A DNA stretch of 64,000 nt from a virus (lineage: Duplodnaviria; Heunggongvirae; Uroviricota; Caudoviricetes): the IMG/VR virus record IMGVR_UViG_3300032007_000008. One strand, given 5' to 3'. Every line of letters starts with the position of its first letter. Positions within the stretch are counted from its first letter, which is position 1. The translations under genes were made by a program, and so were the position numbers. This document shows, in pieces, positions 28,859 to 58,726 of the stretch. The notes beneath the pieces were generated by a model, which was not told the origin of the DNA, ran no database searches, and saw only the letters and a program-made list of their open reading frames with translations.

Positions 28859-29003
28859 GAAGAAAAATGTATAAATTTTTTTCAAAAAACCTCTTGACAA
28901 ATCTCCTTCTCTCTAATCATGTTCTTTTCTCCCACCACAAAAAAGAGGACGGTGACAGACCACCCTCAGTCCATCACCGTCCATCAACCCAAATCCAAAT
29001 CCT

Positions 29004-29513
29004 CTACGCTCCGAGCCGACGCGACAGGTCTCCAATCCTCTTGTAGAACCCAGCCGTGTGCAGTGACTTCTCCAGACCGAGCAGTTGCATATCTATGTGG
29101 TGGCACAGTTCATGCACGGCAGTTTCAAAGAAGGACTTGGCTGCGCGTCTCTGTCCCTTCATTGCGGTCAGGTTCCAAATCCTAATCTCTATCGCGCAGT
29201 TGCCGAGATGCTTGTAGTGGCCGAGCTTGCCGCCGCCGAACCGACCGTTGTCCTTTGTACTGTGGGGGCATGGGGTATCAACCACCACGACGCGGACGGA
29301 GGGGATGTGGAGTTTGCCGCACACATAGTCCACGAGTTCCTGCGTCTTGGACTGCCTGTAGTTTGCCGTGTCCCTCTTGGCTTCCACGATTGCCGAGCGG
29401 TAGGACGAGGACAGACGAGGGCAGTTGGGAATAGTCTCTATCGAGTTTGACTGTATGTAGTCAGCCGAGGAAGATGCCGAACCGCCGAAAGACCTACGAA
29501 AGAAACGAGCCAT
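29004..29513 (-). CDS. HExxH zinc metallopeptidase-like early protein
   Basis: TAVHELCHHID...LHTAGFY; follows promoter module. Confidence 0.8.
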   Translation of the reverse strand: MARFFRRSFGGSASSSADYIQSNSIETIPNCPRLSSSYRSAIVEAKRDTANYRQSKTQELVDYVCGKLHIPSVRVVVVDTPCPHSTKDNGRFGGGKLGHYKHLGNCAIEIRIWNLTAMKGQRRAAKSFFETAVHELCHHIDMQLLGLEKSLHTAGFYKRIGDLSRRLGA

Positions 29514-29735
29514 TTGTTGTTTTCTCCTTTGACTGTTGTGTCCTTTGAACGCCGCCTATTATATCATAATAGGGTTTCCGTGTCAAGGGGGTCATGGAAA
29601 TAAAAACAGGATTGTGAAAAAAGTCGCCTTACCCCCTTGACAAAACATCTTCTCTCCAATCCTGTTTTCCTTTTACATAAAATGAAAAGGGGGTGGCTAT
29701 TCGGCCAGACCCCCTTTGTCTGAAATCCTACTGTT

Positions 29736-29957
29736 TCAAATCCCCCTGTTGGCTATGTCCTCCACCCACCCCTTGAACTTCTCAATGTCCTCGTCCGTCA
29801 GGTTGTCGGAGAAGCAGGCACCCGTGACGCTTTCCGTGCCGTCCTTCTCGTATTCCTCGTATTCCTCGGTTGTCATGTCCCTCTTCTCGTCGGCAATGCC
29901 GTATGCCGCTTCAAGCAGGTGGCAAAGCCATTCCTTCCAGTCAATCTTGTCGTTCAT
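29736..29957 (-). CDS. acidic hypothetical early protein
   Basis: GGAGA RBS, in cassette. Confidence 0.7.
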   Translation of the reverse strand: MNDKIDWKEWLCHLLEAAYGIADEKRDMTTEEYEEYEKDGTESVTGACFSDNLTDEDIEKFKGWVEDIANRGI

Positions 29958-29981
29958 TTCTCCATTTCCTCCGCTTGGTTG

Positions 29982-30161
29982 TCAAAACGGCTTGACAGTC
30001 TCGCCCTCGCCCTCGGTGTCTGTCACCTTCGGCTGGTGGAACTCCGCCACGGTGTCGGCGCAATGCCTGCACACAAGCAGTCTCCCTCCCTCCACGGTTT
30101 CAACCTCCACGGAACGCGCCATGTCCTCGCCGCCGCCACAGTTTCCGCATACGAACTCCAT
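29982..30161 (-). CDS. small zinc-finger protein
   Basis: CGNC...CRHC; AAAGGAG RBS. Confidence 0.65.
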   Translation of the reverse strand: MEFVCGNCGGGEDMARSVEVETVEGGRLLVCRHCADTVAEFHQPKVTDTEGEGETVKPF

Positions 30162-30180
30162 CGTGTACACTCCTTTCGCT

Positions 30181-30495
30181 TCAGGCCGCAATGACGCGGT
30201 ATGACATTATAATCCGTCCGCCCTCGCCATCACCGGAACACTCGTAGGAAAGCGCAAGCCCCTTTTTGGAAAGCCACGCGGCAATGGCTCTGTTCGCTTG
30301 GCAGAAGCCCTCGTATCTGTCGGGCTTGTAGTAGAACAGAACATTCAGGAAGTCGCAGAACTCGTCCGTGGGGTCTTCCTCGTTCTGATGCGGACAGACC
30401 TCCACCTCAACCTCGTTTGTCTTGGCGATGCGCTCCGCGAACTGCGAAACTTCGCGCAGTCCGCCTGCAATCTCTATTGCTTCCTTCGCTCTCAT
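30181..30495 (-). CDS. hypothetical early protein
   Basis: First gene after promoter module. Confidence 0.75.
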   Translation of the reverse strand: MRAKEAIEIAGGLREVSQFAERIAKTNEVEVEVCPHQNEEDPTDEFCDFLNVLFYYKPDRYEGFCQANRAIAAWLSKKGLALSYECSGDGEGGRIIMSYRVIAA

Positions 30496-30696
30496 TGTCG
30501 GTTCTCTCCTTTTATGTCCTTGAAACGCCGCCTATTATATCATAATAGGGTTTTCGTGTCAAGGGGGTCATGGAAAGTTTTTTGAAAAAACCGAAAAAAC
30601 CGCCTTACCCCCCTTGACAAAACAGCTTCTCTCAAATGGGATTTCGCCAAAGGGGAAACGGCGGAACGGGTTTCAACCGTCCCGCCGCCGGTTCAG

Positions 30697-31203
30697 TCAG
30701 TCGAACTTCTCAAGGTTCACCTGCTCCAACCGCACCCTCAACAGGGATTCCGTGGGGTTGATTATGTCCCATTTGCCGATTCTGATGTTGTGCGCCGCGA
30801 CAATGCACTCGGCAAGGTATCCGCCCGCATAGCCGTACTTGCTCTGCGGGTAGATTGAGTCCCAGAACTCAAGTTCCTTTTTCGTGAAATCGTTGTTCAG
30901 CGGCACGGGCGCGTTCGTCCCCTTCTCGTAAACCTCCATGCAACAGCCGACATACTTGATTTTCCACTCGCAGTTCCTCAGGAACACCGGATTGGGTTCT
31001 GCGGGCTTCGGCTTCTCCACGGGCTTCTCCCTGCGGCTCTTGGGCTTGCGCGGCAGTCTCTCCCGCACCACCTCAAAGGTCGGGTAGCCGTATCTCTTGC
31101 TCAAGGCTCTCTTTATCTCCCTTGAAGTCAGCGGCGGGATGTTCCGTCCGTGGCTATCGGTTTCAGGCATCGTTGCGATGACAATGTACTTCACGGTTCT
31201 CAT
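30697..31203 (-). CDS. hypothetical early protein
   Basis: First gene after promoter module. Confidence 0.75.
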   Translation of the reverse strand: MRTVKYIVIATMPETDSHGRNIPPLTSREIKRALSKRYGYPTFEVVRERLPRKPKSRREKPVEKPKPAEPNPVFLRNCEWKIKYVGCCMEVYEKGTNAPVPLNNDFTKKELEFWDSIYPQSKYGYAGGYLAECIVAAHNIRIGKWDIINPTESLLRVRLEQVNLEKFD

Positions 31204-31419
31204 CTGCGTCTCTCCTTTGGGTGTCTCTGAAAACGCCGCCTATTATAACATAATAGGGCTTTCGCGTCAAGGCCGTAAAAAGATTTTTTTTTTTGAAGAT
31301 TCCCCTTGACAAATCCACTTCTCTCAAGCATGGTTTCGCCGCACACAAAAACGAAACAAAAACAAAACAGGGGACGGCCTTTCAGCCGTCCCCCGTCTGT
31401 CCGCTCCGCGCCGTGGCCT

Positions 31420-31908
31420 TTACGCCACACGCAGTATGCTTTCAACGCCGTAGGTGCGCCATGTCACGCCGTAGGGGTTCGCGGACGGCTTGTCAAGGTA
31501 GTTGGCCTTCAAGTCCTCAATCTCCGCTTCCGTGGCTTCGCGTCCGTCAATCAGATAGGTGCGCTTCACGCCGCCGACCTTATCCACCGCGATGTAGAAC
31601 TTCCCCTCCACCTTGTCGGCTTCCATGAGCCACTTGCTACCGCCGACATAATGCTTGCCAGACGGCTTCTGCGCCACGAAATCCCGCTCTTCCCCCCTCC
31701 GCTCCTTCGCGTTGTTTACGGCGTTTTCGTAGGAGACGCCGAGCATGGCGGAGAAGGTGGAGCGAATCTGCACCGTGAAGGTGGTAGGCTCTTTCGTGGT
31801 GCGGTTCTTTTTCGTGAGGTGCGGCGTGGTGAGCGTCTCAAAGCCGTAGAACGCGCCGTTCTGGCGATTGAGTTTTGCGACTGCCGCGATGATTTCGTCC
31901 TTTGTCAT
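31420..31908 (-). CDS. hypothetical early protein
   Basis: First gene after promoter module; YENAVN motif. Confidence 0.8.
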   Translation of the reverse strand: MTKDEIIAAVAKLNRQNGAFYGFETLTTPHLTKKNRTTKEPTTFTVQIRSTFSAMLGVSYENAVNNAKERRGEERDFVAQKPSGKHYVGGSKWLMEADKVEGKFYIAVDKVGGVKRTYLIDGREATEAEIEDLKANYLDKPSANPYGVTWRTYGVESILRVA

Positions 31909-32156
31909 TTTCTTTTCTCCTTTAGGGGTTTGGGTTGTTTGTCTGTTATGTCCTCAAAACGCCGCCTATTATAGCATAATAGGGTTTCCGTGTCAATGGG
32001 TTCGGCGAAAAAGTTTGAAAAAGTTATCTACAGGTTGTGAACATTCTGTCGGCAACCGAACCTCCGCCACGGAGAAGCCGTCATGTCAAGCGAAATCTGC
32101 GGAAAAATCCACACGGCAAAAACGCCGTGTGGTATCTTGGGAATGTGCGTGTACGG

Positions 32157-32555
32157 TCACGATGCTTGGTATATCACATACATCTTGTTCCACTTGCGAC
32201 TGTCGGCAAGAGCCTTGACGAACAGATGCCCATGTCGGTCAGAACTTACGCGAATGTATGTCCAGCCCTTGTCAATCATGCCGCCGACAACCTGCCCGAC
32301 ATATCGGGAGAGATACTGTTTCGCTTCAAGTCTGGTGTCCCAGTGGCCGTCAAGATGCAGTACGCCTGTCTTGTAGTCCGTGAACGAGCGGTGGATGATA
32401 TGTTCGCTTGAAATGCACTTCCCGCTTTTGAAATAGCCCTCTTCGTCTGTAGGCCCAATGTCCGAATACTCGCGGATGAGCCACTTCTTAGACTGCTTCT
32501 TGGACAACGCCGCTTTCGTCTTGCGCGTCTTGGCCTTTGTGGTTTTCTTGGTCAT
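32157..32555 (-). CDS. hypothetical early protein, basic N-terminus
   Basis: First gene after promoter module. Confidence 0.75.
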   Translation of the reverse strand: MTKKTTKAKTRKTKAALSKKQSKKWLIREYSDIGPTDEEGYFKSGKCISSEHIIHRSFTDYKTGVLHLDGHWDTRLEAKQYLSRYVGQVVGGMIDKGWTYIRVSSDRHGHLFVKALADSRKWNKMYVIYQAS

Positions 32556-32756
32556 GGTTTCTCCTTTGGGTTGTTTTGAAAACGCCGCCTATTATAACAT
32601 AATAGGGTTTTCGTGTCAAGGGGTTCCAACAGGATTTTCATGGATATTTTCTGGCCGCTTCTGAAAAACATCCCCAAGCCCGTCCACAGAGAAGCCGTCT
32701 TGTCAAGAGGCTTTTTGAAAAAAAAAGAGACGGCGCGAACGCCGTCCCAGACCGAT

Positions 32757-33206
32757 TCAGGCCGCCGCGACCCACATCGGGTTTCTGCTATAGCCGCCTT
32801 CAAGCCGTGACGGAAGATAGCGGAGTTCCTTGTGGAGTTCTCCGTATCTACGCGCCGCTTCCTCGCGCACAACCTGAAAGTGGGCATAGAGGGAAAAGTC
32901 CTTCAACTCGTCCTCGGTGGCGTTGTCAAAGGCCAACTCCATGAGAAGTTGCGAAATGTTGTCACCGATTCCCCTGTAATACGAAATCACCAGGGAGATT
33001 CTGTCCCAACCGCCGCGCCAATGCTGACCCCAAATGTCCACGGGGCCGTGCTCCAGCATCAACCTCGGCTCTTTCAGATATTCCTTCGTCCTCTTGAACA
33101 TCGCGTCATGGTTGCTTGTGGTGTTGCCCGTGTTCACCCAGTCCCGACCCTCGCAACTGCTGATAATGTCATTCAGATACTTGTCCGTTATGTCCTCAAT
33201 CTTCAT
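32757..33206 (-). CDS. hypothetical early protein
   Basis: GGAGA RBS. Confidence 0.7.
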   Translation of the reverse strand: MKIEDITDKYLNDIISSCEGRDWVNTGNTTSNHDAMFKRTKEYLKEPRLMLEHGPVDIWGQHWRGGWDRISLVISYYRGIGDNISQLLMELAFDNATEDELKDFSLYAHFQVVREEAARRYGELHKELRYLPSRLEGGYSRNPMWVAAA

Positions 33207-33245
33207 TTTTCGTTCTCTCCGTTCGTTGTCCTTGAAGCTGACGGC

Positions 33246-33749
33246 CTACCGACTGCGGCGAAGTTTGGCCGCTTCGCGGGAAAGCCTGCGCCACTCGCGC
33301 AGAAGCCGCGTTTCACAGATTGAAAAGTTCCCTTCTGGGGACGAAATGCAATCCAACTTTTCAATCTCCATCAGGCGAAGCGCAACCTCAACGCACTCGG
33401 CTCCAAACTTCTTCTGCTCCGGAGTGGAATCCGCTCCCGCTCCGTTTATGCCGTACATTGCGAACTTGAACGCCAAATCGTTCGTCCTGTCACGCGAACG
33501 GTCTGGGCGGTTCTCCCTGCGAATGTTGAAGTATGCCGCGATAGCATCAAGACTGCGGAATCCCGCAAGCCATCCCTGCATCACGGAAAGCACAAGCCAT
33601 TCCTCAAAATCGTCCGTGTGTCCGCCATCCTCTGGGACAGGCTCCAGACCCGTTTCCTGCTCGTATATGTCAAGCCACAGGTTCTGCATATCCTTGCCGA
33701 TTACCGCATCAAGCAGTTCTTCGTGGTTCTTGAAAGATGAATCCATCAT
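33246..33749 (-). CDS. hypothetical early protein
   Basis: Start moved to ATG after module RBS. Confidence 0.75.
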   Translation of the reverse strand: MMDSSFKNHEELLDAVIGKDMQNLWLDIYEQETGLEPVPEDGGHTDDFEEWLVLSVMQGWLAGFRSLDAIAAYFNIRRENRPDRSRDRTNDLAFKFAMYGINGAGADSTPEQKKFGAECVEVALRLMEIEKLDCISSPEGNFSICETRLLREWRRLSREAAKLRRSR

Positions 33750-33960
33750 TTTCTTTTCTCCTTTGGGTTGTTTTGAAAACGCGCCTATTATAACATAATA
33801 GGGTTTTCGTGTCAAGGGTGTCCACCGAAATTTTCTGTTTTTTTTCCTCGGTTGCCTGTCCTGTCCGCAGAGAAGTGGATTTGTCAAGAGATTTCTCAAA
33901 AAAAAACAAAAAAAGCGGCGGCGCACCAGCACCGCCGCACCCTTTGGAGATGATTAAATC

Positions 33961-34155
33961 CTAATAGGCCGAAGTATCGTCAAACATTTCGTAGATGTCC
34001 ACGCCCTCGGTATCCTGACCCTCGTATTCCTCAAGTTCGTCCTCCGCTCCGCACTCGGGGCAGACGAGAACGCCATCCTCGTTTTCCTGACAGTCCGACT
34101 GCACGACATGGCCGCAACAGTTGCACCACATTTCGTAGGTTCTGCTTCGTGGCAT
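33961..34155 (-). CDS. acidic zinc-ribbon protein
   Basis: CNCC...CPECG. Confidence 0.7.
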   Translation of the reverse strand: MPRSRTYEMWCNCCGHVVQSDCQENEDGVLVCPECGAEDELEEYEGQDTEGVDIYEMFDDTSAY

Positions 34156-34169
34156 TTTCTTTTAACTCC

Positions 34170-34256
34170 TTACATTTTGCTGATTTTCACGATGACTGCT
34201 ACACAGAGAGCGACAAACGCAGGTTCAAAAAGCGATGCTATGACGATTGGTTCCAT
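34170..34256 (-). CDS. 28 aa hydrophobic peptide
   Basis: MEPIVIASLFEPAFVALCVAVIVKISKM directly after module RBS. Confidence 0.6.
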   Translation of the reverse strand: MEPIVIASLFEPAFVALCVAVIVKISKM

Positions 34257-34451
34257 GGGTTTCTCCTTTGTCCCTTAAACGCCGCCCATTATAGCATATC
34301 GCAGTTTCAAAGTCAAGGGGCTACATGGACTTTTCTGATTTTTTTTTCGGCAAGTCCAAAAGCCCGTCCACGGAGAAGCTGACCTGTCAAGAGGATTTTG
34401 AAAAAACAAAAAAAGTTGCGGCGGAAAACCGCCGCAACCGCCGAAACTCCA

Positions 34452-34871
34452 TCACATTCTTCGCTTGACCCTGTTCCAGTATCTCTTCGTCTCGGCTTTC
34501 GCATAACCATCCGGTCCGCCGTTCCATATCCGCGCCCTGTCCTCGTTGGTCACGGCTCGCTTCAGCCGCTTCCGCGTTGCGTAGAGGTTCATGTAGCGGA
34601 GAAAAATCTCCTTCGACTTCTTTCGGCTGAACCTGTCGGCGTAGGTGTATTTCGTGCCGTATGCGCGGTTCACATCATCGACCACGGACTTCCTGATTTG
34701 AAGGCAACCGACCGACTTGCCGCCATCACCGACCGCAAAATCGTTTCCGCTCGATTCCACGGCTATCACCGCTTCGATGAGTTTGCCGTGCTTCTCCGCG
34801 CCGACTGCGGAAAAGGCAAGGATTCCAACTCCAAGCGCGATTCCCGCGATTTTTGCAATGCCTGTTTTCAT
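34452..34871 (-). CDS. secreted lysozyme-like/lytic transglycosylase
   Basis: Signal peptide; AVESSG catalytic Glu, GCLQI, ARIWNGGP. Confidence 0.82.
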   Translation of the reverse strand: MKTGIAKIAGIALGVGILAFSAVGAEKHGKLIEAVIAVESSGNDFAVGDGGKSVGCLQIRKSVVDDVNRAYGTKYTYADRFSRKKSKEIFLRYMNLYATRKRLKRAVTNEDRARIWNGGPDGYAKAETKRYWNRVKRRM

Positions 34872-34962
34872 GATTTCTCCTTTTTGTCCTTTAGATGCCG
34901 CCTATTATAGCATAATCGGTATTTAATGTCAATGGGGGTGCGAAAGATTTTTTCGTCTTTCG

Positions 34963-35151
34963 CTATCGGTCAGGGTCGGGGAAACTTGCGGATATGTAAT
35001 CCTCCGCGAAATCGAAAAATCCCCATGTCGCGTCCCTGTCGATATGCCAACGCATCCAGCGAAGGTAAGCCCACTGTGTGAGCCTGTCGCTTTTCAGCAG
35101 ACAGCCCACCCAATGAACGGACTTGTAGAAAAGCCGTCCCATGCCGCTCAC
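34963..35151 (-). CDS. hypothetical early protein
   Basis: Coupled to upstream ORF. Confidence 0.55.
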   Translation of the reverse strand: MSGMGRLFYKSVHWVGCLLKSDRLTQWAYLRWMRWHIDRDATWGFFDFAEDYISASFPDPDR

Positions 35152-35375
35152 TCCCCAATCGTTTCAAGCAGGTCGGAAATGACATTCTTCACGCCCAACT
35201 GCTTGGCGAGAAGCGTGACCACCTTCTGCGCCGCGTCCCTCGACAGTTTCAGTTCGATTTTCACGCCCTCATGCTCGACCTTCAGGCGAAAGCGGTTCTC
35301 GACCGCAATCGGACATTCCTCTTCGGTTTCGGTCGAAGCGGTGTAGAAGTTGAACATTCCGTATGTGTGGTGCAT
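35148..35375 (-). CDS. hypothetical early protein
   Basis: First gene after promoter module. Confidence 0.7.
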   Translation of the reverse strand: MHHTYGMFNFYTASTETEEECPIAVENRFRLKVEHEGVKIELKLSRDAAQKVVTLLAKQLGVKNVISDLLETIGE

Positions 35376-35561
35376 TGTTTTTCTCTCCTGTTGGTTGTTT
35401 TGAAAACGCGCCTATTATAGCATAATAGGGTTTTCGTGTCAAGGGGGTATGCCGAAAAAAAAAATCTTTTTTTTTTCTGCCGAAACCTCTTGACAAATCA
35501 GCTTCTCTCAAATACGGTTTACGCCTTTTTGAAAAGCGGCGGATTTCTCCGCCGCCGAGTT

Positions 35562-35906: not shown

Positions 35907-35919
35907 TTTGATACCTCCC

Positions 35920-36060: not shown

Positions 36061-36275
36061 TTTCTTTTCTCCTTTGATGTCCTTGAAACGCCGCCTATTA
36101 TAACATAATAGGTCTTTCGTGTCAAGGGGGATAGCCAAAAAAATATTTTTTTTTTCTCTGACGGAAAACTCTTGACAAATCATCTTCTCTCAAATCGGGT
36201 TGTGCAGACTGCGGACGAAAAGAAAAGGCGGCGCACCCGCGCCGCCCCGTCTGCTCTTGGTGTTTGAATTACAGA

Positions 36276-36626: not shown

Positions 36627-36818
36627 GTTGTTCTCCTTTGCTTTTGTCCCTTAAACGCCGCCCATTATAGCATATCCGCGTTTCAAAGTCAAGGGGGAAA
36701 TCAGAAAAACCTTAAAAAGTTGTGAACAGGTTATAAACAGGTTGTGAACAAAAAAAAACGCAAAATTGCGCTTGACACGGACGCTTCTCGCGTGTCGCGT
36801 TTTCGCTGAAAAATCCTC

Positions 36819-37018
36819 TTGACTTTTGCCCTTGGCCGTGGTATAATCGAAGGACGCGCAGAAAATCCGTCGAGAGCCGAGAGGACGCGGATACCCCCTC
36901 CGTCAATGGCGGAGAGGGTTCACCTGATAGAGGAAACGCCCCCAGAACATCAGGTAGGTCGCACAGAACGAGAGTATTTCGTATGGGGTCATGTCTGCCT
37001 TTCGCCGTCACCTTCCCT
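36819..37018 (+). ncRNA. candidate ~165 nt structured ncRNA with its own promoter
   Basis: TTGACT-17-TATAAT at 36819-36847; complementary ends GAAGG/CCTTC; internal hairpins; no RBS-led ORF. Confidence 0.5.
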
Positions 37019-37222: not shown

Positions 37223-37489
37223 TCAGAGAGCCACGGTAATGCGTGGGGTCTTTTCAATGGGAAGGTCCCAGAAGCCGTCAGAGAAGAACGACCTGACGTG
37301 AGCGCAGGTCGTGTTGGACCTGTAGGACGAGAAGCGATGCTCCTTGCCCTTGGGGTCGATGCCGCCCATTATGGTGTCATAGGAGCGCAGATACTTCCAT
37401 CCGCCCTTGACGATTACCTTTGCCTTTCCGTAGAAGGACTTGCGTCCGTTGCACGGCGTGAGGTCGTAGATTTCGGTGGTTCTTTTCAT
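37223..37489 (-). CDS. hypothetical early protein
   Basis: KSFYGKA...LRSYDT...TT..HVRSF motif; first after module. Confidence 0.8.
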   Translation of the reverse strand: MKRTTEIYDLTPCNGRKSFYGKAKVIVKGGWKYLRSYDTIMGGIDPKGKEHRFSSYRSNTTCAHVRSFFSDGFWDLPIEKTPRITVAL

Positions 37490-37715
37490 GTTGTCTCCTT
37501 GTGTCCCTTAAACGCCGCCCATTATAGCATATCCGCGTTTCAAAGTCAAGGGGTCATGGAAAGATTTTTGAAAAAATCGTAAAAGTCGCCTTACCCCCTT
37601 GACAAAACATCTTCTCTCAAGTGGCGTTTCGTGGCTGCGGACAAAAAATAAGGAACGGCGTCAGACGGATTGCCCCATCTGCGCCGCTCCGCGCTCTGTA
37701 ATCTCCGTGGACGCG

Positions 37716-38813: not shown

Positions 38814-39000
38814 TTGATTCTCCTTTGTGTTCCTTGAAAACGCCGCCTATTATAGCATAATAGGGTATCCGCGTCAAGGGGTCTGCCAAAAAAAAGGAAA
38901 ATTTTTCCGCCGAAACCTCTTGACAAATCAGCTTCTCTCTGAAAAGGGTTTGCAGACAAAACAAAGAGCGGCGGATTTCTCCGCCGCTCCGTTTTCGCCG

Positions 39001-39915: not shown

Positions 39916-40066
39916 TTCGTTTCTCCTTTTCGTTCCTTGAAAACGCGCCTATTATAACATAATAGGTTGTCCGTGTCAAGTGGGTCGCAGAAGATTTTTT
40001 CGATTTTTGTCCCTTGACAAATCAGCTTCTCGGAGTAAAGGTTTCTTTCAAAAAAAAAACGCGGTG

Positions 40067-40872: not shown

Positions 40873-41059
40873 CTTCAAACTCCTTTTGTCCCTTGAACGC
40901 CGCCTATTATATCATAATAGGGCTTTCGGTGTCAAGCGGAATCTTTCATTTTTTTTTGTCGAAAAACTCCTTGACAAATCAGCTTCTCTCTGTAAAGATA
41001 TTTAGGCGCAAAAGGGAAACGGAGCGAAAGCCCCGTCCCCTCGGCAAGTTTGGCCGTCC

Positions 41060-42419: not shown

Positions 42420-42576
42420 TTGATTCTCCTTTGATGTCCTCAAAACGCCGCCTATTATAGCATAATAGGGTTTCCGTGTCAAGGGGTAATCTGAAAAAAA
42501 AAAACAAAAAAAAATGTCAAGAAAATGCTTGACAAATCCACTTCTCGGCTGATGCGCATTTTTTCGCATTGCCGCT

Positions 42577-44362: not shown

Positions 44363-44597
44363 TTCAACTGCTCCTATTTTGAACTCTGTTGTCCCTTGAA
44401 CGCCGACCATTATACCAAAACCGCCTTTCAAAGTCAAGGGGTCTGAACAAAAAAAAACATTCATTTTTCTCTTGACATTGCAGCTTCTCGGTATATTGAT
44501 TCCGCAATATGACAAAAGGAGACGCACCTTTGTCGGGTGCGTCTCCGGGGGTTTTGTGCGTGTCGTGTTGTGTTGTGTGCGTGGTTGCACCGTCCCG

Positions 44598-45925: not shown

Positions 45926-46107
45926 GGTTTTCTCCTTTAGATGCCGCCTATTATAGCACAACAGGATTTCAAAGTCAAGGGGGATGCGAAAGAAAATCAA
46001 AAAAAAGTCTTTGTTTTCTCTTGACAAATCCTCTTCTCCGTGGAGCGGTTGCGCATTTCCAATAAGAAGGACGCGGCGCAGTCCACGTCCTTCGGCTATC
46101 GAATCTC

Positions 46108-47420: not shown

Positions 47421-47603
47421 GTCGTTCTCCTTTTGTCCTTGAAACGCCGCCTATTATAGCACAACAGGATTGTGAAGTCAAGGCCGAAACGAAAGAAAGT
47501 CAAAAAAAAAACTTTCAGAAAGTCCTTGACAAATCAGCTTCTCTTTGGTAGGAATGTGCTTAAAATGAAATGGGGTGTGTCATTTTGACACACCCCAACT
47601 TCG

Positions 47604-48297: not shown

Positions 48298-48444
48298 TTT
48301 GTTTTCTCCTTCTGTTGTCCTTGAAACGCCGCCCATTATAGCAAATCGGATTCCCAAAGTCAATCCCCAAAACGAAAAATCCTAAAAAAGTTATGAACAG
48401 GTTATGAACAGGTTGTGAACAGGAAAATAATTTCATTTTCCATC

Positions 48445-48473
48445 TTGACACGGAGACTTCTCCTGCCTATAAT
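48445..48473 (+). promoter_or_regulatory. counter-oriented consensus promoter built on a CTTGACA-N6-CTTCTC copy
   Basis: TTGACA-cggagacttctcctgcc-TATAAT. Confidence 0.6.
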
Positions 48474-48495: not shown

Positions 48496-48615
48496 TCAGC
48501 AGAAGACGCTTTCGATTAGGTCGAAGATGAAGTCAACAATGCTAATGAGCAAATCCACTCCCATAAGCACAAACGCGATGAGCAACTCTATCAGAGCAAG
48601 TACGAAATTAAACAT
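48496..48615 (-). CDS. 39 aa hydrophobic peptide
   Basis: MFNFVLALIELLIAFVLMGVDLLISIVDFIFDLIESVFC; overlaps upstream stop. Confidence 0.55.
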   Translation of the reverse strand: MFNFVLALIELLIAFVLMGVDLLISIVDFIFDLIESVFC

Positions 48616-52525: not shown

Positions 52526-52538
52526 GTCTTTTTTCTCC

Positions 52539-52742
52539 TTAGTGTTCGTTTACAAAACGGTCTTTGTTGCAGGCTTTCATGGCTTCCTGCACCAATTCCA
52601 ATGCGTCGTTGAGACAAGTCTCGACGGTATCGCGGTCTTCCGTGTAGTCCATTGCCGAAACCTCGTCACGAACCGAGAGCAAGGAGTTCTCGATGTCGTT
52701 CAGTTCATCGTATTCGGCCATCAGTTCAGCGTCGTTTTTCAT
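52539..52742 (-). CDS. acidic helical early protein
   Basis: In operon. Confidence 0.65.
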   Translation of the reverse strand: MKNDAELMAEYDELNDIENSLLSVRDEVSAMDYTEDRDTVETCLNDALELVQEAMKACNKDRFVNEH

Positions 52743-52755
52743 GGTTCTTCTTTCT

Positions 52756-52926
52756 TCAAGAGTTTTTGTAGAGTTCAGTGTCAATCAACGCATATCCAAT
52801 AGCTTGCAGAACAATGATGGCTTCATCCGGCTCAATTCCATTGTCAATGAGAATCTGCTCGGCTTTCTTCACATTGCTGGTCTTGATTTCATAGTTGACA
52901 TCAGCTACAACTTCATCTTTGTTCAT
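52756..52926 (-). CDS. small hypothetical early protein
   Basis: 56 aa, LIDNGIEPDEA..VLQAIGYAL; first after module. Confidence 0.7.
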   Translation of the reverse strand: MNKDEVVADVNYEIKTSNVKKAEQILIDNGIEPDEAIIVLQAIGYALIDTELYKNS

Positions 52927-53175
52927 GGGTTTCTCCTTTTTGTCCTTGAACGCCGCCCATTATAGCACAACAGGATTGTGAAGTCAAGGGGACTGACGAA
53001 GATTTTTCAAAAAAAAAACTTTCAGAAAACCCTTGACAAATCAGCTTCTCTTTGGTCGAGAAGAGTTTGAAAAAAAAAATAAAGGGGACTGACGGCGTGT
53101 GTTGTTCAAGGAGAGCCGTCAGTCCCACGCAACGTCCGCCCGCATGGATTAGCGGGGAGAAAACGCGGACTTGCG

Positions 53176-53343
53176 TCAAAATCTTCGCATATTGTACCAG
53201 ACGAACGCAAAGCAGGCAATGACGATGAGCAACTGAATCCAGAACGGAGCGAGAACCCACCACCAACTCCAGCCGATTGTTCCGCAGAGTTTCAGTATGA
53301 TGAAAACGATTCCGAGCAGGTCGAGTATTGATGTGTGTTTCAT
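53176..53343 (-). CDS. small membrane protein (LKLxGxIxWSW family)
   Basis: LKLCGTIGWSWWWVLAPFW. Confidence 0.75.
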   Translation of the reverse strand: MKHTSILDLLGIVFIILKLCGTIGWSWWWVLAPFWIQLLIVIACFAFVWYNMRRF

Positions 53344-53344
53344 T

Positions 53345-53653
53345 TTATGCAGCCTTTCCGTAGGTGTAAGAAATCTCTCCGCGAAGTTCGCAGTTCACGT
53401 ATTCCGCCTGTTTGAGGAACTGTTCAAGTTCGCCGATGTGATATGCGATGTCGGTCTTTTCAAGGCAACCCCGCGTGTTCAGGTAGCCGACCTGACGGCA
53501 ATGCGCACCGTCTCCCCATGCGTCGAAGAAGCAGGTTCTACCTTGGTGGCGGACAACCATCTTGTCCCAATGAACCACCTTTGAAGGCCCATCGCCGTCT
53601 CTGCCGCCGACCCACATATACGTGGGACTGTAGTTGCTCTGTTCGCTACTCAT
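53345..53653 (-). CDS. hypothetical early protein
   Basis: First gene after module. Confidence 0.7.
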   Translation of the reverse strand: MSSEQSNYSPTYMWVGGRDGDGPSKVVHWDKMVVRHQGRTCFFDAWGDGAHCRQVGYLNTRGCLEKTDIAYHIGELEQFLKQAEYVNCELRGEISYTYGKAA

Positions 53654-53745
53654 CGTTTCTCCTTTTGTTGTCCTCAAAACGCCGCCTATTATAGCACACT
53701 CCGCAGTTTCTGTCAACAGTCTTTTTGAAAAATCGTCAGACCGAA

Positions 53746-54006
53746 TCAGGCTCGTTCCCTGCCGAAAATCGCATAGGCGAGCATACGGCAGTTTTCCCTG
53801 ATGTACCTCTCGACCTCCCAATCCATAGAGGGTGTCGGGAACTTGTCCTCCAAGATTGCGTTGAACTTGTCAACCCATTCCTTCTTTACGCCCAAATCGT
53901 CATAGAGTTCAGCGGTTCCGTCTGGCGCGGACGTTCTGTCCTCTCCCCCTATCAGATTATAGAGAACGTCAATCGGCTTGATTTCCTCTGTATGCAGTAT
54001 TGTCAT
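53746..54006 (-). CDS. hypothetical early protein
   Basis: AAGGAG RBS. Confidence 0.7.
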   Translation of the reverse strand: MTILHTEEIKPIDVLYNLIGGEDRTSAPDGTAELYDDLGVKKEWVDKFNAILEDKFPTPSMDWEVERYIRENCRMLAYAIFGRERA

Positions 54007-54020
54007 GGCAACAACTCCTT

Positions 54021-54704
54021 TCAAAGTGCGATTTTCACGTACACGCCGACATTCTTCGTGTCGGCCTTGGCCTGTTCTCTCTTGTTTGCCATTCCGCGAA
54101 AACTCTCAATGCGAGACTTGATGGCTTCCTGCGCAGAATCCCACAGGAACTTCGTCTGCGACTGCGAGTTCTTGGCGAGAAAGTAGATGTACCGCCACGT
54201 TTCCGCGTTGTACTTTCCGTCAAGGTTGTATTGCGGCGCATTGTGCTTCGTGAGAGAACTGCTTGAGCAGATTCTGTACTGCGGAAGCGAAGTGTCTGAC
54301 GTATAAGCGCGGACTTCCACGATGTTCACGCAGTCTGGCGTGACCTTCGCGTACAGTCCGCCTGCGTTTCCCTTCCAATACTTCATGTTAGGCGGAGGGG
54401 TGAGCCAAAACGCGATGTCAAAGAACTTCGTGATGTGCGCAACAACCATGTACTGCGAACAGAACATATCGTTGAAACCCGAGTTGTCTATGCGGAGATT
54501 GTTGAAGTCAAGGAAAAGCTCCTTGTTTTCGCGGATTGTCTTGGTAAGGAAGTCTTGAATCTCCTTGTAGTCCTGCATTGCGGCCTTTGCGAACGCCGCA
54601 ATCTTTTCGTCATGGTAAACCTCGTTCATCTTCTCCGCAACTTCCTTCATGGAAGCGAGGTCTTTGACGAGATTTTTGATGTTGGTTATGTCAGCCTTTG
54701 TCAT
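54021..54704 (-). CDS. hypothetical early protein
   Basis: First gene after module. Confidence 0.75.
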   Translation of the reverse strand: MTKADITNIKNLVKDLASMKEVAEKMNEVYHDEKIAAFAKAAMQDYKEIQDFLTKTIRENKELFLDFNNLRIDNSGFNDMFCSQYMVVAHITKFFDIAFWLTPPPNMKYWKGNAGGLYAKVTPDCVNIVEVRAYTSDTSLPQYRICSSSSLTKHNAPQYNLDGKYNAETWRYIYFLAKNSQSQTKFLWDSAQEAIKSRIESFRGMANKREQAKADTKNVGVYVKIAL

Positions 54705-54892
54705 TTGTTTTCTCCTTGTTTGCCTTGAACGCCGCCCATTATAGCAAAACAGGATTGTGAAGTCAAGGGGTCTGACGAAGATTTTTCAAAAAAAAATGTC
54801 AAGAAAAGACTTGACAAAATCACTTCTCCTTGACACTTGTTTCAGGATTGAGAAATAGGTGTGACATTTTGTCACACCTATCCCTCGGCGGA

Positions 54893-55237
54893 TTACCGTG
54901 TGGTCTTAGCAATCTTGGCCAAATCTTCCGGCGAATACTTCTTGCCGACCACAAGACGGTCCCAAATCTTTCCCGTGAACTGCGGAAGGCCGACATTTGC
55001 GCTCCAGCGGTTCAAATGCCCCATAGAGGTCTTGGAGTAGCCGAACCAAAGCCGCACGAAACGACCATCTGGGGTTTTCATTGCGATTGGCGAACGGTAC
55101 GAAATGCACACGTCATATCCGTTCTTCGCAAGGCGATAGACACTTCCGTGCCACGGCGCACCGTGATAGAGTTTCTCCCAATTCTTCTTGGGGGTGAGCA
55201 TGAGTTTGTCGAGCATCTTGAACTCGCGTTTGGTCAT
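54893..55237 (-). CDS. hypothetical early protein
   Basis: ISYRSPI...YSKTSMGHL motif, distantly like 37223..37489. Confidence 0.75.
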   Translation of the reverse strand: MTKREFKMLDKLMLTPKKNWEKLYHGAPWHGSVYRLAKNGYDVCISYRSPIAMKTPDGRFVRLWFGYSKTSMGHLNRWSANVGLPQFTGKIWDRLVVGKKYSPEDLAKIAKTTR

Positions 55238-55250
55238 TGTGGTTTTCCTT

Positions 55251-55487
55251 TCATTTCAGGTGGGTTTTGAGAATCTTGAGGGCGTTCTTCATGTTGAGTT
55301 TCTCGTCCTTCAAAGCCTTGCTCCTCCAGTTGTCTGGGTAGCATTTCATTATCGTGTCGAGAACTCCAATGGCGGATTTCAAGTTGGATATGGCCTTTTC
55401 GCAGTCCTCCATGTAATACCGCAATGTCGCGGTAATGTCCTTGTTCTCCGGCGTGTCAAATTCACTCGTTTCCGTCTTTCGAGCCAT
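55251..55487 (-). CDS. hypothetical early protein
   Basis: GGAGG RBS. Confidence 0.7.
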   Translation of the reverse strand: MARKTETSEFDTPENKDITATLRYYMEDCEKAISNLKSAIGVLDTIMKCYPDNWRSKALKDEKLNMKNALKILKTHLK

Positions 55488-55502
55488 TTCGACCTCCGCG
55501 AA

Positions 55503-55811
55503 TCAGGACGGAAACCTATCGTCCTTGTAGGGGTTCTTGAATCCGCCGAAATAGACGCGGCGGTTGTTCTGGTCCTGCGGCACATATTCCGTATCGAGCC
55601 TTGCGTTGAGGATGAACTTCAACGGGCAGGAATCGCGCCACACCTTCGGCAATGCGTAGATTGGCAGGAACGAATAGCCGTAGAAGGTCATCATCGAAAT
55701 GTCGGTCAAGTCCTCGCAGATGTAGATTTTGTGGCAACCGTCATACGCGAACACGCCGCAGGTCTTGACTTCAACGCCGTTTATCGTGAACTTGCCGTCT
55801 GTCTTTTTCAT
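55503..55811 (-). CDS. hypothetical early protein
   Basis: FAYDGCHKIYICED...SCPLKFI motif. Confidence 0.8.
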   Translation of the reverse strand: MKKTDGKFTINGVEVKTCGVFAYDGCHKIYICEDLTDISMMTFYGYSFLPIYALPKVWRDSCPLKFILNARLDTEYVPQDQNNRRVYFGGFKNPYKDDRFPS

Positions 55812-55886
55812 GGTTTCTCCTTTTTGTCCTTGAAACGCCGCCTATTATAGCACAACAGGATTTCAAAGTCAAGTCGAATCTGAACT

Positions 55887-56150
55887 TTACCTGTATTTTT
55901 TCCATGTGTCCTTCAGCGGAAGGAACTCCACGTCGATAAAGGTCTTTTTGCTTTTGAGCAGTCCCTTGCGGTAAATGTACCGCTCGGCGTGTTTCTGCGA
56001 ATCGAAGATGTACGGCATCACCTCGTTTTTCAATCCTATCCTCTTCTTGCCGACAAGTTTCCCCTTGTACAGTACGTAATAGAGGTACCAAGCATATACG
56101 CCGCTTTCGTGGTATTCCGCGAGAATCTTTACGTTTTTTGAAATGTACAT
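55887..56150 (-). CDS. basic hypothetical early protein
   Basis: GGAGG RBS. Confidence 0.65.
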   Translation of the reverse strand: MYISKNVKILAEYHESGVYAWYLYYVLYKGKLVGKKRIGLKNEVMPYIFDSQKHAERYIYRKGLLKSKKTFIDVEFLPLKDTWKKYR

Positions 56151-56473
56151 CACACCACCTCCGGTCTTTCGATGAGCGCGGTCTGCATCGCAACGCGCCA
56201 CTTGTGTACGCACTCCACCTCGTCATAGTCTGGGTCTCCCTCGCTCTTCAAGCCGAGTTTCACGGTTGCGTTGTCTCCGTTGTTCTCTTCTGAAAGGACA
56301 TCATAAACCGTGTCGCCCTCCTTCAACCCCTTCAAGGTCTTTTCGTAGTCCCTTTGAAGAAACGCGGCGGCTTCCTCTTCGGAATCGTATGAGGCCAATA
56401 TGCGGATATACGGCTCCTGAAAGCGGTCATGCTCGACCATCGCGTAGAGTACGTTCCATATTCTCTTTTTCAT
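56150..56473 (-). CDS. hypothetical early protein
   Basis: First gene after module. Confidence 0.75.
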   Translation of the reverse strand: MKKRIWNVLYAMVEHDRFQEPYIRILASYDSEEEAAAFLQRDYEKTLKGLKEGDTVYDVLSEENNGDNATVKLGLKSEGDPDYDEVECVHKWRVAMQTALIERPEVV

Positions 56474-56648
56474 GGCTTCTCCTTTGTCCCTTAAACGCCG
56501 CCAATTATAGCATATCAGGATTGTGAAGTCAAGGGGGTCGCAGAAGATTCTTCAAAAAAAAACTTTCAGAAATTCCTTGACAAATCAGCTTCTCTTTGTT
56601 TGCGCAGACTGAAATCAAAAGGCGGCGGATTTCTCCGCCGCCGTTCCG

Positions 56649-57305
56649 TCACACCCAAGTGAAGAGGAACACATAGCCCTCGTTCTCTGGGTCGGTCATT
56701 TCCTCCAGCACCTCTTCAAGCGCACTTATGATGTTGCTTGCGCCCTTGCAGTATGGAGAATGTTCCCAAGGAAAGCAGTAGTGGTAGGCCCTGTGGTGAT
56801 AGACCTTCTCGACTTCCTTGTAGATGGCCACGTTCTCCTTTGAACTGCCGTAGTAGAGATATTCGGGGTCGTTCGGGTAATTCGGGTCTTTCGGCTTGTC
56901 CTCGACGTATTTCGGCTTGTCCTTCGACGTGAGATAGACCTTTTTCATGCACTCGCCCGCTTCTCCGTCCTCGTCGTATGGCATGGACGCAACCTTCCTG
57001 TCAAGTTCCTTGAAAACCTCAAGGGCCTTTGAGACGCTCTCTGCGGTCACGACAATCGCCTGCTCGTCCTCCGTTTTGTACTTGTTTTTCAGGAAGTCCG
57101 CAAGTTCCTTGTCTCCGTCCGCGAATCCGTCGGCAGGCTTTACGAGCCTATAGAGGAAATCCTCGCGGTCAAGGTCGCATACGACCGTATGGTAGTCCGG
57201 ATTGTAGTCCTCGATGCACCATCCGTCCTTGTCCATGATGAAACGGGACTTGCCGTTCAGGAAGTTCTCCCTCTTCACCTTCTCGAAACTGTATGTGTCT
57301 CCCAT
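56649..57305 (-). CDS. acidic hypothetical early protein
   Basis: GAGG RBS, 218 aa. Confidence 0.75.
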   Translation of the reverse strand: MGDTYSFEKVKRENFLNGKSRFIMDKDGWCIEDYNPDYHTVVCDLDREDFLYRLVKPADGFADGDKELADFLKNKYKTEDEQAIVVTAESVSKALEVFKELDRKVASMPYDEDGEAGECMKKVYLTSKDKPKYVEDKPKDPNYPNDPEYLYYGSSKENVAIYKEVEKVYHHRAYHYCFPWEHSPYCKGASNIISALEEVLEEMTDPENEGYVFLFTWV

Positions 57306-57313
57306 GTTTCACC

Positions 57314-57589
57314 TCACTTTTCGCAGAATCCCAAAGACGCAACATCGTCCATAAGCGAGATAATCTTCTCTATCTCGTCCTTGCCCGTGTCGGTCAGAAT
57401 GGCCGCACCGCGCAGTATGTACTTCAAATCCTCATATACCTTCTCACCCTTCTTCGTGAAAGGGTGGAGTTCTCCGCGTGAATCCTCGCGGACGCATTTA
57501 AGGTAGAACTTCGCCTTTTTGCCGCCGTTTACCGTGGCAAGCAGAACTTCAAGCGAAGGGAACTTTTGCCTTGTCTTGTTTAGTTTCAT
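57314..57589 (-). CDS. hypothetical early protein, paralog of 47118..47420
   Basis: LEVLLA.VNGGKK...FTKKG. Confidence 0.75.
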   Translation of the reverse strand: MKLNKTRQKFPSLEVLLATVNGGKKAKFYLKCVREDSRGELHPFTKKGEKVYEDLKYILRGAAILTDTGKDEIEKIISLMDDVASLGFCEK

Positions 57590-57758
57590 GTTTCTCCTTT
57601 TATGTCCTTGAAACGCCGCCCATTATACCATATCAGGATTGTGAAGTCAAGTGGTACCCGCAGAAAAAATTTCAAAAAATCCTGTTCCGCCCACTTGACT
57701 TTTCAAAAGGCATCTGCTATAATAGGCGGCGTTTCAAGGACAAAAAGGAGAATCGAAT

Positions 57759-57950
57759 ATGAGAGAGCCTAAGTTCAGCACAGGTCAGAACGTGACCTTC
57801 GTGCAGTTCGACGAAGAGAAAAAGGAGTTTGTCAACCTGAAGGGAACCGTGGCGGACTACCGTCTCGGCTATCAGGACTTCTCCTACGACATCACAGGAG
57901 AGGACGGAAAGGACTACTTCTCCGTTCCGGAGTGCGCAATCAGGGCATAG
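57759..57950 (+). CDS. small SH3-like early protein
   Basis: PKFSTGQNV; first after module. Confidence 0.75.
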   Translation: MREPKFSTGQNVTFVQFDEEKKEFVNLKGTVADYRLGYQDFSYDITGEDGKDYFSVPECAIRA

Positions 57951-57978
57951 GCGAAATTAAGAGAAAGGATACCTAAAC

Positions 57979-58269
57979 ATGAAAAAGAAAACCATTACGG
58001 CAATCATGGACGACATCGTTAGGATGATGACCTCCTGCGGTGTGCAGTCAATCAACCTGAAAAACGGCGACGGAGAGGGGATTGAACTTCCAATCCGTTT
58101 TCCAAAGGGAGACGAGCATGAAGACCTGCACTTCTGCATCGACGTTCTGTACTCTTCCCTGAACGCGGACGATTGCTTTTTCCGCGCTTGGCACCTTCCG
58201 TCCGTAATCAAGGACTTGAAGATTTGGGAGTGCCTGCAATCCATCGTGAGGGAAGAACTCGGACTGTGA
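57979..58269 (+). CDS. hypothetical early protein
   Basis: AAAGGA RBS. Confidence 0.7.
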   Translation: MKKKTITAIMDDIVRMMTSCGVQSINLKNGDGEGIELPIRFPKGDEHEDLHFCIDVLYSSLNADDCFFRAWHLPSVIKDLKIWECLQSIVREELGL

Positions 58270-58305
58270 TTTTGTATCGAAAGAAGAAACAAAGGAGTAT
58301 CTGAA

Positions 58306-58542
58306 ATGGCGAAGGACAACAAGAAGGCCGGAGTGGTGAAGGATGACGGCGAGTTCCGCGAGGTCATGATTCAGTTGCTGACAAGCTCGGTATCGTCCGA
58401 CTACGCGCACCACATCGCGGACAAGATTTTCAAGGCCGTGAAGGAGGACGTGAACGAGTGCGCAAGCGAGGACTGGAGCCTTGGCGATGTCGCATACGGA
58501 ATCGGTCGCGTACTCATGAAGAAACTCCGCATCGAAGTCTGA
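58306..58542 (+). CDS. hypothetical early protein
   Basis: AAGGAG RBS. Confidence 0.7.
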   Translation: MAKDNKKAGVVKDDGEFREVMIQLLTSSVSSDYAHHIADKIFKAVKEDVNECASEDWSLGDVAYGIGRVLMKKLRIEV

Positions 58543-58726
58543 CTTGACGCGGCGGACGGACGGTTTTCGTCCGTCCGTTCCTCTTTTGGCCGAAAGGCTT
58601 TCATGGAGAAGTGATTTTGTCAAGGGGAATCTCGCAGAAAAATTTTGTTTTTTCTTTCTGTTTGCCCTTGACTTCACAATCCTGATATGCTATAATGGGC
58701 GGCGTTTAAGGGACAAAGGAGACAAC

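Follow-up and report, generated by a model that had tools for sequence, protein, structure and literature searches.

Promoter-early stem-loop (PeSL) cassettes have been described in T4-type phages that infect Gram-negative hosts (Arbiol et al. 2010, PMC2839356; PMC4122927). According to the accessible text of the former account, PeSLs occur in arrays of small ORFans and combine a stem-loop terminator with an AT-rich tract, a strong sigma-70-type host promoter and a Shine-Dalgarno sequence; about 100 bp of each module is conserved, and cassettes are shuffled at these modules (PMC2839356). This is the closest described architecture to the early gene array analyzed here, which lies in a 64-kb stretch of DNA (hereafter the window) from an uncultured phage of 291 kb. 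Between its small ORFans the array carries modules that join a stem-loop terminator and an AT-rich tract to a strong host promoter and an SD sequence, and thus possesses all parts of the PeSL module, together with cassette exchange between relatives. Compared with L073, a syntenic relative of 70–87% nucleotide identity, the cassettes of the window have been reordered, gained and lost, and the synteny breaks fall within the repeated intergenic promoter modules. One break lies at a copy of the motif treated below (window 37598, L073 4157), a coincidence that the preliminary description had proposed to test for, whereas other breaks lie in promoter modules that have no motif (window 38182 and 40478 versus L073 3577 and 5819). 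The hosts differ as well, since PeSLs are known from Gram-negative hosts and the AAGGAG ribosome sites, the TGn-extended −10 elements and the 50% G+C content of the array suggest a Firmicutes-like host. A further difference is that the accessible text of the PeSL account names no backward −35 followed by a fixed block in the stretch from stem-loop to AT tract; the word "antisense" has 0 occurrences in it, and the motif is none of the PeSL components that it describes (PMC2839356). We also found no account of the motif in the literature on jumbo-phage early promoters and antisense RNA.

The motif is CTTGACA-N6-CTTCTC. A scan of the window gave 24 exact copies between 28893 and 58624, against 0.01 expected, with 19 on the + strand and 5 on the − strand, and all of them are intergenic. 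The motif copies are:

28893..28911, + strand, divergent from the early promoter at 28858 (−)
29636..29654, + strand, divergent from the promoter at 29586 (−); points at the terminator of the upstream unit
30613..30631, + strand, divergent from the promoter at 30562 (−)
31305..31323, + strand, divergent from the promoter at 31270 (−)
32072..32090, − strand, co-directional, 76 bp upstream of the promoter at 31996 (−); adjoins the terminator T-tract
32689..32707, − strand, co-directional with the promoter at 32619 (−)
33870..33888, − strand, co-directional with the promoter at 33815 (−)
34373..34391, − strand, co-directional with the promoter at 34316 (−)
35489..35507, + strand, divergent from the promoter at 35442 (−)
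36171..36189, + strand, divergent from the promoter at 36125 (−)
36771..36789, + strand, 79 bp from the promoter at 36692 (−), with 11-bp repeats between; then a complete + promoter at 36819
37598..37616, + strand, divergent from the promoter at 37549 (−)
38919..38937, + strand, divergent from the promoter at 38877 (−)
40013..40031, + strand, divergent from the promoter at 39979 (−)
40970..40988, + strand, divergent from the promoter at 40935 (−)
42528..42546, + strand, divergent from the promoter at 42482 (−); then a weak + promoter at 42576
44471..44489, + strand, divergent from the promoter at 44437 (−)
46020..46038, + strand, divergent from the promoter at 45978 (−)
47525..47543, + strand, divergent from the promoter at 47481 (−)
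48444..48462, + strand, within a complete + promoter TTGACA-17-TATAAT; opposite a 39-aa hydrophobic ORF (−)
53032..53050, + strand, divergent from the promoter at 52987 (−)
54810..54828, + strand, divergent from the promoter at 54766 (−)
56576..56594, + strand, divergent from the promoter at 56532 (−)
58606..58624, − strand, divergent from the + promoter at 58668

The preliminary description had reported two invariant halves at an exact 6-nt gap, and this holds: a scan of the window tolerating two mismatches found no copy with one mismatch and only two extra matches, both at chance level. Rather than being equally common outside the array, the motif is absent from the rest of the 64-kb window. 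Its fixed part amounts to 13 bases (CTTGACA plus CTTCTC), identical in 24/24 copies, and its flanks are diverse within the genome. The spacer, previously called variable, does differ in sequence among copies but is not free, its fourth base being C in 20/24 copies and its sequence AATCAG in 8/24. The motif unit further takes in the T-run/A-run on its upstream side and, at +28 to +31, a weak G.TT box. Whichever way a copy faces, a T-run/CAAAAA tract is found just 5′ of the motif −35, placed as an UP element would be.

The motif sits in the gap that leads from the terminator of the upstream unit to the promoter of the next one. Only 24 of the 43 host-type early promoters have a motif and 19 do not, so the pairing of motif and promoter proposed earlier has to give way to another correlate, the terminator at the junction. 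The 19 motif-less promoters directly follow a stop codon, and nearly all junctions with a terminator at the end of the upstream unit carry the motif; a strict detector finds a terminator at 16/24 motif junctions versus 1/19 motif-less junctions, and by eye one is seen at about 22/24 of the former. The presence of the motif follows the junction terminator and not the promoter as such. The distance from motif to promoter −35 is 34–81 bp, a narrower range than the 30–95 bp first given, and that from motif to terminator is about 24–46 bp; both are loose and thus give no grounds for a fixed contact geometry. The motif–promoter distances show no clean helical phasing, with clusters near 35 and 45 and also at 49–51. 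The orientations had been read correctly: 20/24 copies point away from the nearest early promoter, including the copy at 58606 with its + strand promoter, and four consecutive copies at 32.0–34.4 kb (32072, 32689, 33870 and 34373) are flipped and thus co-directional with their own promoter, 55–76 bp away. Ahead of the 20 copies lie the upstream unit's terminator and its antisense strand; ahead of the four lies the next early promoter. A gene or RNA running in the same direction, as expected of a promoter, was not found downstream of the motif. The 12-bp inverted repeat noted at 29581/29631 is real and is made of two back-to-back −35 boxes plus C-run flanks.

Every copy possesses a perfect −35 TTGACA (24/24), usually back-to-back with the next promoter, and what is missing is the −10. 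TAnnnT at 16–18 bp is present in 2/24 copies of the window, 0/12 of L073 and 0/7 of another close relative, L093, against a background of 2.3%, and TATAAT at 17 bp is found only in the copy at 48444, the single copy for which a consensus −10 had been claimed. Because the −10 is absent in 22/24 copies, sigma-A alone should not open these sites. The motif can coexist with a real promoter, as at 48444 and at position 12385 of the relative L086. We know of no activator that replaces a −10, and to our knowledge sigma-A does not read a hexamer at spacer positions 7–12.

The preliminary description had allowed that CTTCTC might not be conserved in relatives; in the close relatives it is, the 13 fixed bases being intact in 12/12 copies of L073 and 7/8 copies of L093. 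Across 10 orthologous pairs there are 0/130 changes at fixed positions versus 26/60 (43%) in the spacer, and about 43–55% of spacer and flank positions differ between orthologous copies. At the level of sequence comparison, this pattern demonstrates purifying selection on the 13 fixed bases, and the motif, which has lost its −10, is more strictly conserved than the working promoters. Among more distant relatives, L085, L086, L088 and L089 hold TTGAC(A/T)-N6-GCGGTTTGTGC at the corresponding slot in 12–17 copies each, mostly without a −10; in L086 some sites are paired back to back and others stand three together inside 130 bp. In L091/L092 the slot is taken by complete reverse promoters (TTGACA-17 followed by TAGAAT or TATAAT) that point at the upstream terminator, and for L091 the correspondence to the motif is one of position and layout, not of alignment. 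CTTCTC itself is found within a working-looking spacer in L084 (CTTGACG-N8-CTTCTC-TGG-TAGAAT) and L081 (CTTGACA-AAGA-CTTCTC-TTTTAA-TACAAT). Judged from their sequences, the relatives form a graded series at one slot, from a full reverse promoter through a half with GCGGTTTGTGC to a half with CTTCTC. Neither motif type was found in 80 IMG/VR loci with DUF8033 relatives, among which only L150 (16 consensus promoters) and L174 (14) have promoter-dense stretches. Direct DNA searches, namely megablast of 10 kb against phage records and scans of IMG/VR with the exact 19-mer and the gapped pattern, of species genomes with the gapped pattern and of JGI metagenomes with the 19-mer, returned no match or lone chance matches. 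Many of the chance matches fall on ordinary bacterial promoters whose spacer contains CTTCTC by coincidence.

We tentatively favor, with confidence somewhat short of even, a reading of the motif as a promoter-derived site at which host RNA polymerase docks in reverse orientation, dependent on a putative CTTCTC-reading factor. The conserved core would comprise the A/T tract, a sigma-A −35 (C-TTGACA), a fixed 6-bp gap and CTTCTC, with one copy per predicted non-transcribed gap between the terminator of an early unit and the next host-type promoter. The slot holds complete reverse sigma-A promoters in relatives, and here the −10 would have been lost and the −35 and CTTCTC frozen. Host RNA polymerase would dock via sigma region 4 and the alpha C-terminal domains, and a second reader, most likely a phage-encoded early protein that recognizes CTTCTC, would set the outcome. 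The polymerase may fire, with antisense transcription of the upstream early unit (for the four co-directional copies the transcript would be sense), or it may stay parked head-on against read-through; in either event early units would be shut off or insulated at a set time. A bolder form of this proposal, possible and on balance doubtful, is that a phage protein recognizes CTTCTC, or GCGGTTTGTGC in the sister lineage, next to sigma-A region 4 and at one stroke makes antisense promoters or head-on polymerase traps out of more than 20 silent reverse −35 sites that have no −10. Among the functions suggested earlier, a docking or decoy site for sigma region 4 and a promoter for a modified polymerase fit the perfect −35, the A/T tract and the full reverse promoters of relatives, whereas an operator that shuts off early promoters fits poorly, since 19 equally good early promoters have no motif. 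Pfam detected no sigma, HTH, AraC-type or other DNA-binding domain in 80 early proteins, the largest array proteins have no Pfam or PHROGs match, and homologs of Q, MotA, AsiA or p4 were not found among the scanned proteins. Rfam identified three tRNAs only in the window.

The motif could also be an operator at which RNA polymerase plays no part, bound by a sequence-specific protein of phage or host that forms a roadblock or insulator just past the terminator; we consider this unlikely, and equally so its detailed form, in which a two-domain or heterodimeric protein contacts CTTGACA and CTTCTC in successive major grooves with centers 12 bp apart. Two unlike fixed blocks with a fixed 6-bp gap and a semi-free spacer would suit such a protein, as would the presence of one site per terminator-bounded junction in the only predicted non-transcribed DNA of the array, the tolerance of both orientations, and a lineage-specific second block (CTTCTC versus GCGGTTTGTGC), which is expected with a co-evolving reader. 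However, one of the blocks matches the sigma-A −35 consensus base for base and has an UP-like tract on its proper side in either orientation, complete promoters occupy the homologous slot in relatives, the 80 early proteins show no DNA-binding domain, and the three-site clusters and back-to-back pairs of L086 would be odd for a roadblock. A docking or decoy site that needs no factor would let the host holoenzyme settle on the UP tract and −35 as a closed complex unable to open, and so enrich polymerase near the neighboring early promoter or soak it up. The perfect −35, the A/T tract, the missing −10 and the nearby strong early promoters agree with it, yet it is improbable: it leaves unexplained why CTTCTC, or GCGGTTTGTGC in the other lineage, never varies, 19 consensus early promoters manage without the motif, and the four co-directional copies lie 55–76 bp from their promoter.

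It is very improbable that the motif serves recombination or cassette mobility, or signals DNA entry, replication or packaging. The cassette changes between the window and L073, with intergenic breaks and one of them at the motif, speak for such a role, but the other breaks lie in motif-less promoter modules, so that ordinary homologous exchange between 100-bp repeats suffices, as the accessible text describes for PeSLs (PMC2839356). The recombination site suggested at first is thus unneeded, the breaks falling in repeated promoter modules generally; an attC-like inverted-repeat core is lacking, the motif follows gene orientation and terminators and not one genome axis, and nothing points to the entry or segregation signal that had also been suggested. 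We give just as little credence to the idea that the motif is a leftover of reverse promoters without function, its uniformity being maintained by gene conversion among the intergenic modules. These modules are repeated and clearly exchange, and the −10 has decayed; yet conversion would homogenize spacer and flanks too, which differ between orthologs as given above without any change at the fixed positions, and the flanks are diverse inside the genome.

Several known classes of site were rejected. Sigma-54 promoters (−24/−12; TGGCAC-N5-TTGC, with GG/GC doublets 10 bp apart) do not match, the fixed motif bases being without GG or GC. Type I restriction-modification targets (3–4 bp, N6–8, 4–5 bp, independent of genes) differ from half-sites of 7 and 6 bp whose 24/24 copies are intergenic and at terminator junctions. 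An integron attC-like site was discarded since the two blocks are not mutual inverted repeats and the sole dyad is formed with the −35 of the neighboring promoter. None of the boxes known to us for Spo0A, CodY, CcpA, Rex, LexA and PhoP fits the motif, nor does any alternative sigma consensus that we know (B, F, G, H, ECF, group 5).

Promoter-plus-terminator cassettes heading small early gene arrays are already known, and the second, backward-facing element is what is new relative to the PeSL descriptions as far as their accessible text goes. We know of no comparable backward-facing element elsewhere. The motif marks a place where the phage probably redirects host RNA polymerase. The bolder form of the proposal, if true, would amount to a switch acting across the whole genome to end early expression in a group of giant gut or rumen phages, with host polymerase used without a −10. 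The natural series of relatives (full promoter, half with block B, half with block A) makes the question testable, and the motif provides a precise sequence signature for early-unit boundaries in an uncultured group of 280–290 kb phages. With sigma-70/sigma-A promoters, including their extended −10 (TRTG) forms, the motif shares the consensus −35 hexamer and the upstream A/T tract, and it differs in having no −10 in 22/24 copies and an invariant hexamer at spacer positions 7–12; in relatives the slot shows a spacer of 16–17 bp with TAGAAT, TATAAT or TACAAT after it. The lambda Q-binding element lies between the −35 and −10 of PR′, the T4 MotA box works with AsiA, and the phi29 p4 sites lie between divergent early and late promoters; in these systems a phage protein reads a short block beside sigma region 4 and brings about a timed change of the host polymerase. 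The motif resembles them in that its block adjoins the predicted seat of sigma region 4, in the phi29 case also at back-to-back promoters, whereas those systems still use a −10 and none is known to be an antisense-facing site repeated 20-fold. Antisense promoters at the 3′ ends of genes and termination by head-on collision occur in bacteria; the motif differs from these in lacking a −10 and in forming an invariant repeated family, and has in common with them a promoter-like site that points at the 3′ end and terminator of the upstream unit.

The window belongs to a metagenome contig of 291.6 kb, and its proteins are also carried by a JGI contig of 291,652 bp and an ENA contig of 291,589 bp. 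It comes from a very large phage, marked by Hsp70, DNA methyltransferase, radical-SAM and PARP-like genes together with PHROG hits; three tRNA genes stand in a row at 3926-4175. From 28.8 kb to the window end runs a dense array of small ORFan genes, on the minus strand as far as 57.6 kb and on the plus strand beyond. The array promoters are of the consensus host type, TTGAC(A/T)-17-TGnTATAAT; after them come a conserved leader and ribosome sites of sequence AAGGAG. No promoter of this type occurs in 1-28.8 kb, where a different short motif, CTAAATAG, lies upstream of larger genes. Its five copies in the window (0.8 expected), four of them immediately 5' of larger genes, fit a separate late promoter class.

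Window 7752, 9437, 19440 (minus strand), 62776 and 3484: copies of CTAAATAG

The window contains 24 exact copies of CTTGACA-N6-CTTCTC against 0.01 expected, all within 28893-58624. Twenty are back-to-back with the nearest early promoter, and four, at 32072-34391, are co-directional with it, which bears out the preliminary description of an array-confined motif facing away from its promoter except in four consecutive flipped copies. When up to two mismatches were allowed across the window, two chance hits were the sole gain and no copy with one mismatch appeared; the 13 fixed bases thus vary less than the working promoters' -35 boxes do. The bipartite form stands, but the logo adds a T-run/CAAAAA tract that stops about 4 bp short of the motif, a C at spacer base 4 in 20 of the 24 copies and, at +28 to +31, a weak G.TT box. 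As had been noticed earlier, only copy 48444 has a consensus -10 (TATAAT at 17 bp); even TAnnnT at 16-18 bp is found in only 2/24 copies, with a background of 2.3%.

The proposed pairing with promoters holds for 24 of the 43 early promoters, which have a motif within 120 bp upstream, but not for the other 19, which lie directly 3' of the previous stop codon without a terminator; what the motif follows is terminators. A strict hairpin-plus-T-tract detector places a terminator at 16/24 motif junctions versus 1/19 motif-less ones, and inspection by eye together with the tool scan raises the former to about 22/24. The junctions without one, 36771 and 48444, are the two with a complete counter-oriented promoter, layouts that recall type I toxin-antitoxin pairs:

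36819-36847, plus strand: complete promoter, antisense into ORF 36903-36992 (minus strand), a 29-aa peptide
48445-48473, plus strand: complete promoter, antisense into ORF 48496-48615 (minus strand), 39 aa and very hydrophobic

In gene direction a stop codon and terminator come first, then 24-46 nt, GAGAAG-N6-TGTCAAG, an A/T tract and the promoter, and the motif therefore fills the sole stretch of the array that should be non-transcribed. At the four flipped copies the terminator T-run also serves as the upstream tract of the motif, and the promoter lies 55-76 bp beyond. Distances to promoter and terminator vary, and the motif stands once per terminator-bounded unit.

Relatives were reached through protein look-ups, DNA searches having yielded none; the sequence covered is 64 kb of this genome and 10-20 kb pieces of its relatives. 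L073, a 17.6-kb ENA scaffold, shares synteny and 70-87% nucleotide identity with the window, certain cassettes being relocated, gained or absent. It holds 12 exact motif copies within 12 kb, two of them co-directional at the site syntenic with the flipped copies. Over ten orthologous motif pairs, 0/130 fixed positions changed versus 26/60 spacer positions, with immediate flanks about 45% identical ungapped; at the spacer rate, 130 unchanged sites would have a chance of about 1e-32 by our arithmetic, and the blocks are under selection. In a second relative, L093, seven copies are exact and an eighth carries one change. The preliminary description was to fall if CTTCTC were unconserved in relatives; both pieces keep it, and on this point it therefore holds.

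More distant relatives, traced through a DUF8033 protein (window 37223-37489), gave four phage lineages whose cassettes are laid out in the same way. CTTCTC is absent from the pieces L085, L086 (from a 281-kb contig), L088 and L089/L090, in which the same slot is occupied by TTGAC(A/T)-N6-GCGGTTTGTGC (type B), mostly divergent in orientation, at 12-17 copies per 16-20 kb. The GCGGTTTGTGC block ends in TGTGC, which contains the TRTG extension typical of Firmicutes promoters; the -10 position is variable and mostly poor, and a few copies have a correctly spaced TATAAG or TATATT, such as L086 12385, which aims into a non-coding tract of G/C runs on the edge of the array. In L091/L092 the slot holds complete reverse promoters (TTGACA-17-TAGAAT or TATAAT, TTGTGG preceding the -10), about a dozen within 11 kb, each towards the terminator of the upstream unit. 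Two short contigs reached through another array protein combine both features:

L084 1563-1535: complete reverse promoter, TTGACG, 17-bp spacer containing CTTCTC, TAGAAT
L081 2343-2316: complete reverse promoter, TTGACA, 16-bp spacer containing CTTCTC, TACAAT

These complete promoters indicate that the slot behind each terminator was ancestrally a reverse sigma-A promoter, in which the window's lineage would have fixed the -35 and the spacer hexamer and lost the -10. Among the forward early promoters each lineage has a conserved spacer of its own: CCCTATTATGn in the window, GGTTTCATATAGTG in L085, CACGGCCTATTTCG in L086 and TTCATATTTCA in L088. Lineage-specific constraint on promoter spacers is thus general in these phages.

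Several other elements accompany the motif. Tandem 11-bp repeats GTTRTNNACAG (e.g. GTTATGAACAGGTTATGAACAGGTTGTGAAC; 5 matches versus 0.06 expected in the window) resemble the DnaA box (TTATNCACA) with one mismatch. Every relative has them: in L085, L086 and L088 they lie between the motif and the promoter, and in L091 they fall within the leader transcribed from the reverse promoters. On the array's inner edge (28700-28860) a consensus promoter aims into a non-coding C/G-run tract in which CTTACCCCCC(A)T is repeated; a tract of this kind at L086 12400-12530 has as its promoter a type B copy whose -10 is good, and the related CTTAGCCCCCAT recurs downstream of the L091 reverse promoters. A further box follows co-directional copies of both motif types at differing distances.

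Window 32023-32042, 36719-36749 and 48390-48420: GTTRTNNACAG tandem repeats beside motif copies
Window 32708-32725 and 34392-34410; L073 9185-9200: ACGGGCTT(A/G)GG box
L085 14263, L086 12412, L088 15185 and L089 12980: ACGGGCTT(A/G)GG box

What the sequences show directly is the anatomy of the motif, its association with terminators, the selection on it and its counterparts in relatives; from these we infer polymerase binding, a factor and an outcome. We argue that host polymerase (sigma region 4 and alpha C-terminal domains) may be one partner, because the -35 is perfect, the UP-like tract is on the correct side whichever way the motif faces, and its ancestry is that of a promoter. To our knowledge, spacer positions 7-12 are not read by sigma-A. 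That CTTCTC is invariant, and that the sister lineage has another invariant block in its place, thus calls for a second, phage-co-evolving reader, though no candidate was found among 80 early proteins, and the absent -10 suggests that the site would be silent or non-productive without it. Our tentative reading is a factor-dependent reverse polymerase site, which would either start antisense transcription through the upstream early unit or hold polymerase head-on behind the terminator. Most terminator hairpins lack a T-tract on the motif strand, so antisense transcripts would run past them. By either route, early units would be insulated or early expression brought to an end; the four co-directional copies would instead give their genes a second, later promoter.

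A polymerase-independent operator or roadblock would explain two blocks of unlike sequence and a single motif per terminator, but it is an unlikely reading, leaving unaccounted for an exact -35 with UP tract as one block and the full promoters at the relatives' slot. We consider a factor-free decoy quite improbable, as it gives no account of CTTCTC, and a relic kept uniform through gene conversion highly improbable, being contradicted by the divergent spacers and flanks. The earlier suggestion of an operator shutting off early genes is unlikely because 19 equally strong promoters have no motif. A recombination site, also suggested, is unnecessary: one synteny break between the window and L073 falls at a motif copy, but breaks also fall within motif-less promoter modules, and the available text of PMC2839356 documents repeated-module exchange for the promoter-early stem-loop (PeSL) cassettes of T4-type phages.

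Overall, the array matches these PeSL cassettes in its stem-loop, AT tract, sigma-70 promoter, SD, ORFans and shuffling, but their description, in the available text, does not include the reverse half-promoter present here (PMC2839356). The motif is without a -10 and no homologous protein was seen, and it is thus not assigned to the lambda Q-binding element, to MotA/AsiA or to phi29 p4; by analogy, these factor sites at promoter cores would nevertheless be what it most resembles.
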